A DNA stretch of 64,000 nt. Origin: Escherichia coli. Lineage in GTDB: Bacteria; Pseudomonadota; Gammaproteobacteria; Enterobacterales; Enterobacteriaceae. The DNA lies in NCBI RefSeq assembly GCF_050320075.1, contig NZ_CP190018.1; one strand, given 5' to 3'. Within the stretch, counting starts at the first letter, position 1; each line of letters starts with the position of its first letter. Position numbers: made by a program. Below are positions 12,641-15,600 of the stretch, piece after piece.

Positions 12641-15600
12641 TGATGGGCGGTATTCTGAAACGGCGATTGTCGTGAGAACAGAATGGTTGCACCAGAATAC
12701 AGATATAAAAAAACCGACATGACAGTCGGTTTTTTTATTTTTTCCGCCCAAGACTTGGTGGTTCCGGGCAGAAATGAAACAGTCCTCATCTAGCAAGTGA
12801 ATTATAAGTCAGGATGCCTACATATTCAAACAGCTATGTTGGCGATACAATCCCGACGCTAGTAGTGATACTGCCTCAAGGGATTACCGCAGTGCGGAAA
12901 AGTACTTTTAAGTCCTGGTCAGGATACAGGTGGTGCTGATTCTGGTGCTCTAATTTGGAGAGAGGCAGTCCTCATCTAGCACATGAAGAAAATCATAGTT
13001 ACAGGCAACGTAAGGGTAAGCTGTGATTGTCTTTCTCCCTTAAGGGAGCAACGGATGAAAACTTTTCTCGATAAAGTTCTCATCGTTCTTAAGGCGCTAA
13101 TCGCGCTGCTGGAACTGATTCGTCAGTTTATTGAATAACTGAGGAAACGTAGCTAAGGCCGAAGGTTTGCCACCTTCGGCCTTTAAAAAAACCGACATGA
13201 CAGTTGGTTTCATATTTATTGCCAAAATGCATACTGTTCATGCCAGATGCGGCGTAAACGCCTTATCCGGCCTACACAATCTTGCAAAATCAATATATTG
13301 CACGCTCTTCGTAGGCCTGATAAGCGTAGCGCATCAGGCAATCTAACACCTGTCATCATCCCGCAAACTGCCTGAACAGCGCCTTACCCTTAACCAGTCG
13401 CGCACCCAGCCAGCCGCCGAAAAGCGACAGCAGCAGCGCACCGCTGCACGGCAGAACAATCCACAATCGCCAGTCTGGCTCCCACGGGAAATCAAACACT
13501 TTCGCCTGCAACACTGCCAGCGCCGTTTCCGCACCAATTGCGGCCACCAGGCCAGAAACAAACCCGAGCATGGCGAATTCACACCACAACGTGGTGTGCA
13601 GCAGTTTTTTCCCCGCACCGAGTGTGCGCCACACCACCAGCTCCTGATGACGCTGACGCATTCCCACCTGCACCTGTGCCAGCAACAGCAACATACCGCA
13701 GGCAGTGACCAGCACCACCATCACCTCCAGCGCCCGACTTACCTGCTCCAGCACCTGACCGACCTGTTTTAAAATCGCGCCAATGTCTAACAGGCTAATG
13801 GTCGGGAACTGGCGGTTGAGTTGCGTCAACATGCCATTGCCATTCTCCCAGCGGAAACTGGTAAGCCAGCTCTGCGGTTGCCCGTCTAATGCCCCTTCCG
13901 GGAAAATAAAATAGAAATTAGGCCGCAGACTTTCCCAGTCCACTTTGCGCAGGCTGGTCACTTTAGCGCGGAACTCCTGGGTATCGCCCATAAAGGTGAC
14001 TGTATCGCCGAGGCCAACGTTTAAGCGTTTCGCCAGCCCCTCTTCCATCGACACTTCATCGGCTTTTGGCGGCCAGTTACCGGCGATAATCGGATTATGA
14101 TCGGGCCGCGTATTTTGCCAGGTAAGATTGAGTTCGCGGTTAAGCGCCTCATCTTCATTACCTTCTGTCGGCTTATCGTTAATCGCCGTCAGCCGCGCCC
14201 GCACCACCGGATAAAACGATTCCGGGACTATCTGATGTTCCGCGAGGAACGCTTTTAGCGGTGCTACCTGTTCTGTGGCGATGTTAATTAAAAAGTAGTT
14301 CGGGCTTTCTGGAGGTAGCTGCTGCTGCCAGCGGTCGAGCAGATCGCCACGCAGCACCAGCAGCAGTGCCAACAGCATAAAGGAGAGCGAAAATGCCGAA
14401 AGCTGGCTTAACGTTGACCACGGCTGACGTAACAGGCGGCTAACCGCCAGGCGCAGAGATAGCGATTTCAGCGTCATGCGGCGAAGTACATTCAGCAGCA
14501 TCCAGCCCAGCACACCGCACAGCAAAGCCAGTACTACCGCGCCCGCCAGCACCGCCCAAAGCAGCATGCTGCCACCCATTAATCCGGCGAGCAGCAGCAC
14601 AACCACCACACTGACAATCGGCAGATAAAACTTGAGCGGCCAGACGTTCGCTACCACATCATTACGTAATACGCGTAAAGGCTGCGTTGCCAGCAACAAG
14701 CGGTACGGTCGTAGCCCCACCAGCAGCGAGATAACCGTCATGGTGCCCAGCGCCCATAGCCACGGCCAGAGGCTGGCTGGCGGTAGTGCGGCAGGCAGAA
14801 CGGGCTTGAGCAGCACCATCAACACGTTTTCGAACAACAGGCCTATCGCCCCGCCGGTAACGGCTGAAAGCGCCAGCACCATCAACCACTGACCGACGAT
14901 TAGCTTACGCAGTTGCGCTCGCCCTGCCCCCAGCGTTTTGAGGATCGCCACAAGATCGTAGCGACTGCGACAGTAATGATTCATCGCCACCGCCACCGCT
15001 GCCACTGCCAGCAGCAAGGTCAGAAGCGCCGAAAGCAGCAGGAACTGTTGCGAGCGTTCCATCGAGCGCCCCAGCGCGCCTTCGTCCTGTTCCAGACCGT
15101 ACCAGCGTTGTTCGGGTTTAAGCTGAGGTAACAACCATTTCTCATAGCCGTCGAGCTGGTTCTCGTTGCCGCCGAATTTATAGCGCCAGGTGACCCGACT
15201 TCCCGGCTGCACGGCTCCGGTTTTATCGACATCCGCCAGATTCATCATCAGACGCGGAGCCATCTGGAAGGGGTTAAAACCGGAATCCGGTTCCTGAATC
15301 ACTTCTCCGGCAATCCGCAAGGTGGCATCACCCACGTCGATGGTGTCGCCCGTTTTCAGGTTAAGCAGTGCCATCAGGCGTGGGGCCAGCAATACGCTGC
15401 CCGCCTGCGGTTTCAGGCCAGGGGGATTGGTTTGCAGATCGCCATACATCGGATAGATATCATCCACCGCTTTGACGTTCGCCAGCTGCGGTGTGTCGCC
15501 TGCAAATGTCATGGTGGCGAAAGTCAGCTGCTTGCCGACTTTCAGGCCGCGCTTTTGCGCTTCCTCCAGCCACGCTTGCGGCACTTCGCGCGAACTGCGC

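Follow-up and report, generated by a model that had tools for sequence, protein, structure and literature searches.

A predicted type I toxin-antitoxin cassette of the DinQ/AgrB family in the selU-ybbP spacer of Escherichia coli

The DinQ/AgrB family and the selU-ybbP locus

The dinQ-agrAB locus of Escherichia coli K-12 was described in 2013 (PMC3567139), and its dql paralogues on enterobacterial chromosomes and plasmids in 2016 (PMC5066626). Antisense RNAs of the dql genes were then predicted in T1TAdb in 2021 (PMC8594479), and a plasmid agrB-dqlB pair was validated in 2025 (PMC12317039). In K-12 the first 31 nt of the small RNAs (sRNAs) agrA and agrB are antisense to the dinQ mRNA, and binding of agrB at G88-A119 closes the Shine-Dalgarno (SD) hairpin of the processed +44 transcript (PMC3567139, PMC5066626). 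Here we describe a related locus in a 64,000-nt stretch of an E. coli genome (assembly GCF_050320075.1, contig NZ_CP190018.1), called the window below. An initial annotation of this DNA had noted two duplicated modules around a small toxin open reading frame (ORF) and proposed a dinQ/agr-type locus; the family was right, while the roles given to the repeats were not. The locus occupies positions 12644-13355, a spacer bounded by the end of the plus-strand gene selU/mnmH at 12643 and by that of the minus-strand gene ybbP at 13356. With a probability that we put at roughly 85%, this spacer contains a type I toxin-antitoxin cassette of the DinQ/AgrB (dql) family, composed of a divergent sRNA and a DinQ-like toxin with repression based on pairing, and one of its two terminator copies is most simply the remnant of a former array. 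No literature on this selU-ybbP locus was found, though its possible membership in the 14 published dql sequences (PMC5066626) could not be checked.

Membership is indicated on both the RNA and the protein side. The Rfam AgrB model (RF02891) matches the minus strand at 12793..12705 over its full length (model positions 1-84) with 53.6 bits (gathering threshold 40, E 9.8e-8). The matching RNA aligns with 16 other agr RNAs, retains their first hairpin and terminator, and is encoded upstream of the toxin gene in a divergent, non-overlapping orientation. The toxin peptide passes the NCBIfam toxin_DinQ model NF041472 (40.9 bits for a cutoff of 30) and has no Pfam model at all. Moreover, the stretch is collinear base for base with the K-12 agrA-dinQ, the HB37 single-agr dinQ and the IncI agr-dqlB loci, with the exception of an extra terminator module. 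The OrzO-P model reaches only 19-24 bits here (gathering threshold 60). The sRNA carries no annotation in any of the sampled RefSeq records.

At the sequence level the locus is a member of the DinQ/AgrB family, while being neither dinQ proper nor a DqlB. It lies in the selU/mnmH-ybbP spacer instead of the arsR-gor spacer and has no LexA operator: no CTGT-N8-ACAG site with at most one mismatch occurs in 12780-12990, whereas the same scan recovered the K-12 box. The only site with two mismatches, at 12818, lacks the CTG, and in the family alignment the LexA box is restricted to the arsR-gor dinQ loci. Without a LexA box, the gene is to be classed with the dql-type paralogues and not with the SOS genes, whatever its RefSeq product name suggests. 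That name, 'damage-inducible type I toxin DinQ', was assigned by the Prokaryotic Genome Annotation Pipeline via an equivalog model and over-specifies a gene that has neither a LexA operator nor the chromosomal position of dinQ. The peptide also stays below the cutoff of the DqlB model NF041473 (DinQ_rel; 24.5 bits for a cutoff of 35). Escherichia sp. E1V33 has an identical peptide, and closely related ones occur in Serratia, Photorhabdus and Hafnia. The locus most likely belongs to a branch outside DqlB, where its nearest members are the chromosomal copies of Serratia oryzae, Photorhabdus and Hafnia.

Compared with the K-12 dinQ-agrA/agrB locus (arsR-gor; Weel-Sneve 2013, PMC3567139; Kristiansen 2016, PMC5066626), the divergent, non-overlapping arrangement is the same, and in both loci the sRNA begins with a segment antisense to the corresponding part of the toxin 5' untranslated region (UTR). 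The toxins share the character of a 27-aa single-helix peptide with an ALIALLELIR core. The UTR blocks AGTCCTGG, GGTGGTGC and GACAGGCA, the SD hairpin, and GGAAACGTA with the 3' hairpin are also kept. However, the two loci occupy different chromosomal sites, and the present one has a single sRNA gene where K-12 has two, a promoter lacking the LexA box, 19-20 contiguous pairs compared with 30 of 31, and an additional agr-type terminator after the toxin hairpin. The toxin differs by three extra N-terminal residues and a C-terminus that is three residues shorter. The dql genes, including agrB-dqlB of IncX3/IncI plasmids (PMC5066626; PMC12317039; PMC8594479), likewise are not SOS genes and have a sigma-70 promoter, the same UTR layout and a single agr. 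A comparable arrangement with a divergent, non-overlapping antisense RNA is seen in ZorO/OrzO, TisB/IstR-1 and ShoB/OhsC (grouped in T1TAdb), whose antitoxin genes lie 5' of the toxin genes and whose antitoxins act via a short complementary stretch of some 15-30 nt in the 5' UTR, but their toxins and RNAs are unrelated in sequence to this locus. The cassette is therefore best regarded as an ordinary member of a known family that leaves the knowledge of type I systems unchanged.

The 16-nt repeat and the predicted sRNA-mRNA interaction

The first repeat, CAGTCCTCATCTAGCA, is 16 nt long; the window has exactly two copies of it, at 12780-12795 and 12966-12981. The initial annotation had reported a 17-mer (12780-12796 and 12964-12980); the two copies stand, with the length and the second position corrected. 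Shuffled sequences give an expectation of 0.03 chance matches for a 16-mer with up to two mismatches. Without gaps the similarity extends over 22 nt at 91% identity (12780-12801 against 12966-12987).

Judged by its position and complementarity, this pair represents the 5' pairing end of the sRNA (copy 1) and its putative target in the toxin 5' UTR (copy 2). Since the sRNA has the sequence of the strand opposite to copy 1, the two partners look like a direct repeat at the DNA level. The DNA of K-12 contains the corresponding sRNA/target repeat three times, at agrB, agrA and dinQ. Complementarity between a repeat and the toxin 5' UTR, which the initial annotation had suggested looking for, is indeed present: the sRNA 5' end is antisense to 12962-12980, a site positionally homologous to the agrB-binding region G88-A119 of dinQ. 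In a whole-molecule cofold, sRNA nt 1-19 form 19 contiguous pairs with this mRNA segment (15-16 of them Watson-Crick), and the predicted gain upon binding is -29.0 kcal/mol for a 5'-truncated mRNA against -17.4 for the full-length one. The duplex of the first 35 sRNA nt with the UTR reaches -47.3 kcal/mol, compared with -23.8 +/- 3.1 for shuffled sequences (minimum -35.3). The K-12 duplexes have energies of -58.2 (agrB) and -42.7 kcal/mol (agrA), while cross-pairing between this locus and K-12 is weaker (-37.6 and -31.1 kcal/mol).

Further support comes from a comparison of 15 distinct loci, sampled from plasmids and 8 genera. Their variable core of 14 nt agrees between sRNA and mRNA at 13.3 of 14 positions within a locus and at 7.7 of 14 between loci. 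Both sides therefore evolve together, as pairing partners should.

The sRNA, of about 90 nt, would be made from the minus strand between 12794 and 12705. Its 5' end is placed at about 12794 from the position of the promoter and by analogy with the mapped start of K-12 agr. It comprises a single-stranded 5' pairing end, a hairpin with a CCACCAA loop, and the terminator. Its promoter, the sole sigma-70-like site called in 12500-13500, lies 7-8 nt upstream of the predicted start. The toxin mRNA would start divergently at about 12858 and encode a hydrophobic DinQ-like peptide of 27 aa; its -10 element aligns with a conserved TATAAT/TATGAT column and its start with the +1 GTTAG of 14 homologous loci, including K-12 dinQ.

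In the predicted fold of the full-length mRNA, 12858-12877 pairs with 12962-12981 and masks the sRNA target, which is equivalent to the 1:2 duplex of K-12. In the fold of the 5'-truncated mRNA, 12957-12968 pairs instead with 13027-13038, and when the target is blocked a hairpin (13035-39/13044-48) sequesters the SD. The 1:2, 2:3 and 3:4 pairings can thus all be seen in these folds, which are thermodynamic predictions only. By analogy with K-12 dinQ/agrB, the SD may be freed in the truncated transcript; pairing of the sRNA would then tie up 'sequence 2', allowing the SD hairpin to close and translation to be shut off. Before processing, the target would be masked by the 5' end of the mRNA itself. 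The coordinates of all these elements are given in Table 1.

Two additional observations concern this region. The UTR block GGTGGTGC (12929-12938), the most conserved of the UTR, is complementary to the conserved CCACCAA loop of the first AgrB hairpin (12755-12761, minus strand), and the cofold with the truncated mRNA carries the pairing into this block (sRNA nt 33-38 with 12929-12934). This complementarity could provide a loop-mediated first contact. The best candidate for the toxin -35 element (ATTCAA/TTCAAA, window positions 12824-12830) is the sRNA -35 element (TTGAAT, minus strand, 12829..12824) read in reverse complement, so that the two divergent promoters, whose starts are only about 64 nt apart, would use a common -35 region. 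The same divergent overlap (TTGAAC) is found for Serratia oryzae and Photorhabdus in the family alignment.

Table 1. Features of the selU-ybbP cassette (window coordinates)
Feature	Position	Strand	Description or basis
Strain-variable cassette, ~540 bp	12693..13231		selU(mnmH)-ybbP spacer; contains all sRNA, toxin and terminator parts
Terminator module copy 1, predicted bidirectional intrinsic terminator	12705..12738	both	14-bp stem, 6-nt loop
AgrB-like antitoxin sRNA gene, ~90 nt	12705..12794	-	Rfam RF02891; collinearity with K-12, HB37 and IncI
sRNA pairing end	12776..12795	-	Contains 16-mer copy 1 (12780-12795), reverse-complemented in the sRNA
sRNA promoter (TTGAAT, 17-nt spacer, TATAAT)	12801..12829	-	10/12 sigma-70 positions
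Putative toxin promoter -10 (TACAAT, 12846-12851) and start (G12858)	12846..12858	+	Predicted; family alignment
mRNA 5' element ('sequence 1' equivalent)	12858..12877	+	Imperfect inverted copy of the target site
Predicted sRNA target site, toxin 5' UTR	12962..12981	+	Holds 16-mer copy 2 (12966-12981); overlaps 'sequence 2' (12957-12968)
'Sequence 3/4' equivalents and SD GGGAG (13045-13049)	13027..13049	+	Predicted SD-sequestering hairpin; aligns with the K-12 SD hairpin
Toxin ORF, 27 aa, MKTFLDKVLIVLKALIALLELIRQFIE	13055..13138	+	ORF list; NCBIfam; RefSeq dinQ
Toxin 3' hairpin, 12-bp GC-rich stem	13155..13183	+	100% complementary inverted repeat; homologous to the dinQ/dql terminator hairpin
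Terminator module copy 2	13184..13223	+	Direct repeat of copy 1; directly after the toxin 3' hairpin

The duplicated terminator module

The second repeat, AAAAAAACCGACATGACAGT(C/T)GGTTT, is found at 12707-12732 and 13185-13210 with one mismatch (chance expectation 0.00), in agreement with the duplicated terminator-like module of the initial annotation. The likeness spans 40 nt at 83% identity (12706-12745 against 13184-13223); with gaps, 34-37 nt are aligned with a score of 51, compared with 14.7 +/- 2.0 for shuffled sequences. Like the 16-mer pair, it is a genuine repeat and not a chance match.

The repeats had been proposed to be antitoxin RNAs or their terminators. This applies to copy 1, which ends the antitoxin RNA, while copy 2 is downstream of the toxin and has no sRNA body. 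The copy 1 hairpin matches the terminator hairpin of the AgrB covariance model and aligns with the terminators of the 16 other agr RNAs; it is an integral part of the sRNA conserved across the family. It scores as terminator-like on both strands and therefore probably also ends selU on the plus strand. The remaining match of the AgrB scan (27.9 bits) is the plus-strand reading of this terminator.

For copy 2, the terminator call is limited to the plus strand. There, the one substitution in its stem (C>T) still allows a G-U pair, while the minus strand acquires a C-A mismatch. The toxin 3' hairpin that it follows is kept, at its position after GGAAACGTA, in 15 of 15 aligned loci. However, copy 2 is missing after the toxin hairpin in 17 other inspected loci with different cassettes, where the hairpin is followed by TTTAAYAWWT and unrelated sequence. 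Outside this cassette, which is also present in Escherichia sp. E1V33, it was encountered only in a tandem array of Citrobacter amalonaticus. Both copies have the loop ATGACA, found in no other family member, which implies that they were duplicated from each other recently.

The array of C. amalonaticus S646 (L030, 7078-8187) has the order agr, agr, dqlB, agr, dqlB. In it, the agr terminator and sRNA of the next unit and a second dqlB come after the toxin hairpin. Because the array naturally puts an agr terminator after a toxin hairpin, copy 2 can be read as what is left of a lost unit; most simply, it would be the vestige of a neighbouring agr unit in a former tandem array, an origin that is plausible but not proven. 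Fused to the toxin 3' hairpin, this leftover of the next agr-toxin unit would now serve as the toxin terminator and probably forms the 3' end of the toxin transcript. The sRNAs of the C. amalonaticus array each have a different variable core.

The duplication might in addition give the sRNA and the toxin mRNA a second, 3'-3' kissing-loop contact beside the 5' seed, although we consider this improbable. Copy 1 is read on the minus strand in the sRNA and copy 2 on the plus strand in the mRNA, which makes the two 3' hairpins complementary along 27 nt (26 Watson-Crick pairs and one G-U), including perfectly complementary 6-nt loops (UGUCAU/AUGACA). The predicted duplex has an energy of -42.1 kcal/mol, against -25.3 for the two separate hairpins. 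If it forms, such a contact could make up for the 5' complementarity, which is unusually short at this locus. A parallel for this 3'-3' contact only is offered by the par locus of pAD1 (Fst/RNA II), whose RNAs are likewise complementary at direct repeats and at a terminator hairpin. In par, however, the RNAs are convergent and share a single terminator, whereas here they are divergent and the complementarity comes from the duplicated one. Pairing in par begins at the terminator loops.

Alleles at the site and alternative readings

Of 5426 complete E. coli genomes, 1314 contain the cassette, counted as a match to at least 80% of the spacer; strain CFSAN061763 is identical to the window over this spacer. 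The cassette almost always occupies a single place in a genome and never lies on a true plasmid. Roughly one complete genome in four thus has this second DinQ-type toxin, and the value of the finding is mostly one of annotation. On the left, the flank 12659-12692 is common to the ylbG/RHS allele of O157:H7 TR01 and the sequences diverge beyond it; the right junction is at about 13231-13234, where repetitive extragenic palindromic (REP) sequence resumes. Empty alleles (L004, L005) contain REP elements only and no cassette, and the ylbG/RHS element occupies the site in O157:H7 TR01 and K-12. No traces of the cassette were found in the K-12 RHS allele near ybbP.

Three kinds of disrupted allele were identified. 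In L006 (2820-2830), a 110-bp deletion between CAGTCCTCATC, in the target site, and the similar AAGTTCTCATC, in the ORF, removed the SD and the start codon; a 78-nt 'dinQ' is still called by RefSeq on this allele. In L036 (1495-1505), a deletion of about 75 bp fuses CTGGAACTGA to terminator copy 2, with loss of the toxin C-terminus and hairpin, and the product is a 73-aa 'hypothetical protein'. In the enteropathogenic strain O127:H6 E2348/69 (L002, 2905-4000, corresponding to 12836 of the window), the promoters of sRNA and toxin are separated by an inserted IS481-family element, with AACAGCT repeated at its two ends. This leaves the sRNA gene intact together with its promoter but severs the toxin -10 from its -35. 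The annotation of E2348/69 has a 51-aa ORF, extended upstream, instead of the 27-aa toxin. With one sRNA, a short pairing region and these three kinds of natural knock-out, the locus lends itself, as a natural variant, to experiments on the extent of complementarity that an AgrB-type antitoxin requires.

Several points weigh against the toxin-antitoxin cassette with a remnant terminator as set out above. Such decayed alleles suggest that the system may be dispensable or partly inactive. With 20 of 31 positions identical, the complementarity is the weakest of the family (23-29 elsewhere), and the predicted duplex energy falls between those of K-12 agrB, a working antitoxin, and agrA, which does not work. 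The toxin -35 is weak and was not called by the promoter scan, and the fold of the truncated mRNA shows no free SD. As to copy 2, local alignment revealed no recognisable sRNA body beside it beyond about 13223, so that its origin from a tandem array is unprovable. Moreover, no E. coli genome with two units at this site was seen; the maximum is two places per genome, in about five genomes, which were not inspected.

Some of these points would be expected if the locus were a decaying relic, with historical repeats and no regulation left. The upstream half of the repeat has diverged here, bringing the complementarity down to 20/31, and disrupted alleles exist, with deletions of the start codon (L006) and of the toxin C-terminus (L036) and the insertion in E2348/69. 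The copy in the window is nevertheless intact in its sRNA promoter, hairpins, terminator, SD, start codon and full toxin ORF, its 19-bp contiguous pairing is far above chance, and the identical intact peptide is retained in Escherichia sp. E1V33. Complete decay is therefore unlikely, although it is the alternative that retains most weight.

A still less likely possibility is that the terminator copies are scars of arrival, left when the cassette, as a small mobile module, recombined into a pre-existing att-like terminator that was duplicated in the process. In its favour, both copies lie close to the ends of the strain-specific segment (copy 1 begins 13 nt in from the left edge and the likeness of copy 2 stops about 8 nt before the right edge), and the site has three alternative alleles, with REP only, with the toxin-antitoxin cassette or with ylbG/RHS. 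However, the empty alleles are wholly devoid of the terminator module, and no allele with a solo terminator was found in what was a low-power test: queries combining a flank with the module matched 1266 and 1296 genomes, not above the 1326 with the sRNA body. The two partial matches were other things, an RHS-type allele matching by its left flank only (L037) and the toxin-truncating deletion of L036. The cassette is also almost always confined to one place per genome, the species-representative scan recovered it only in the same context in Escherichia sp. E1V33, and copy 1 belongs to the sRNA gene across the family.

The proposal of the initial annotation that the duplicated modules are two tandem antitoxin sRNA genes, equivalent to agrA/agrB, or their terminators upstream of the toxin recalls the two tandem agr genes upstream of K-12 dinQ and the identical agr terminator stem (CCGAC/GTCGG), but is barely tenable: the Rfam scan of 12000-14000 contains one AgrB match above threshold and no second AgrB sRNA when the limit is relaxed to E<=10, neither a promoter nor a terminator lies on the minus strand near the second 16-mer, which aligns with the agrB-binding site of the mRNA rather than with an agr gene, the second terminator is downstream of the toxin, and the two proposed units of about 180 bp have nothing in common beyond 22 nt (best local alignment 34, shuffle maximum 29), the outcome that the annotation itself had named as speaking against it.

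The species-representative pattern scan returned 27 loci, about 20 of them true DinQ/Dql. The other seven were set aside as chance matches: six were inside long unrelated ORFs on non-enterobacterial contigs, and one more was of the same kind. Photorhabdus khanii has a group II intron domain (L023, 5733-5871; Rfam RF02003, 103 bits) at a distance of about 500 bp from its agr/dql locus. On the ybbP side of the cassette, a pair of REP sequences (REP/BIME, bacterial interspersed mosaic element) at 13236-13330 adjoins ybbP, with Rfam scores below threshold for naRNA4 (36.6 bits, gathering threshold 59.5) and ES036 (35.0 bits, gathering threshold 37.6). The empty alleles contain one extra REP pair, and the REP of the cassette allele resembles a REP1/REP3 recombinant.

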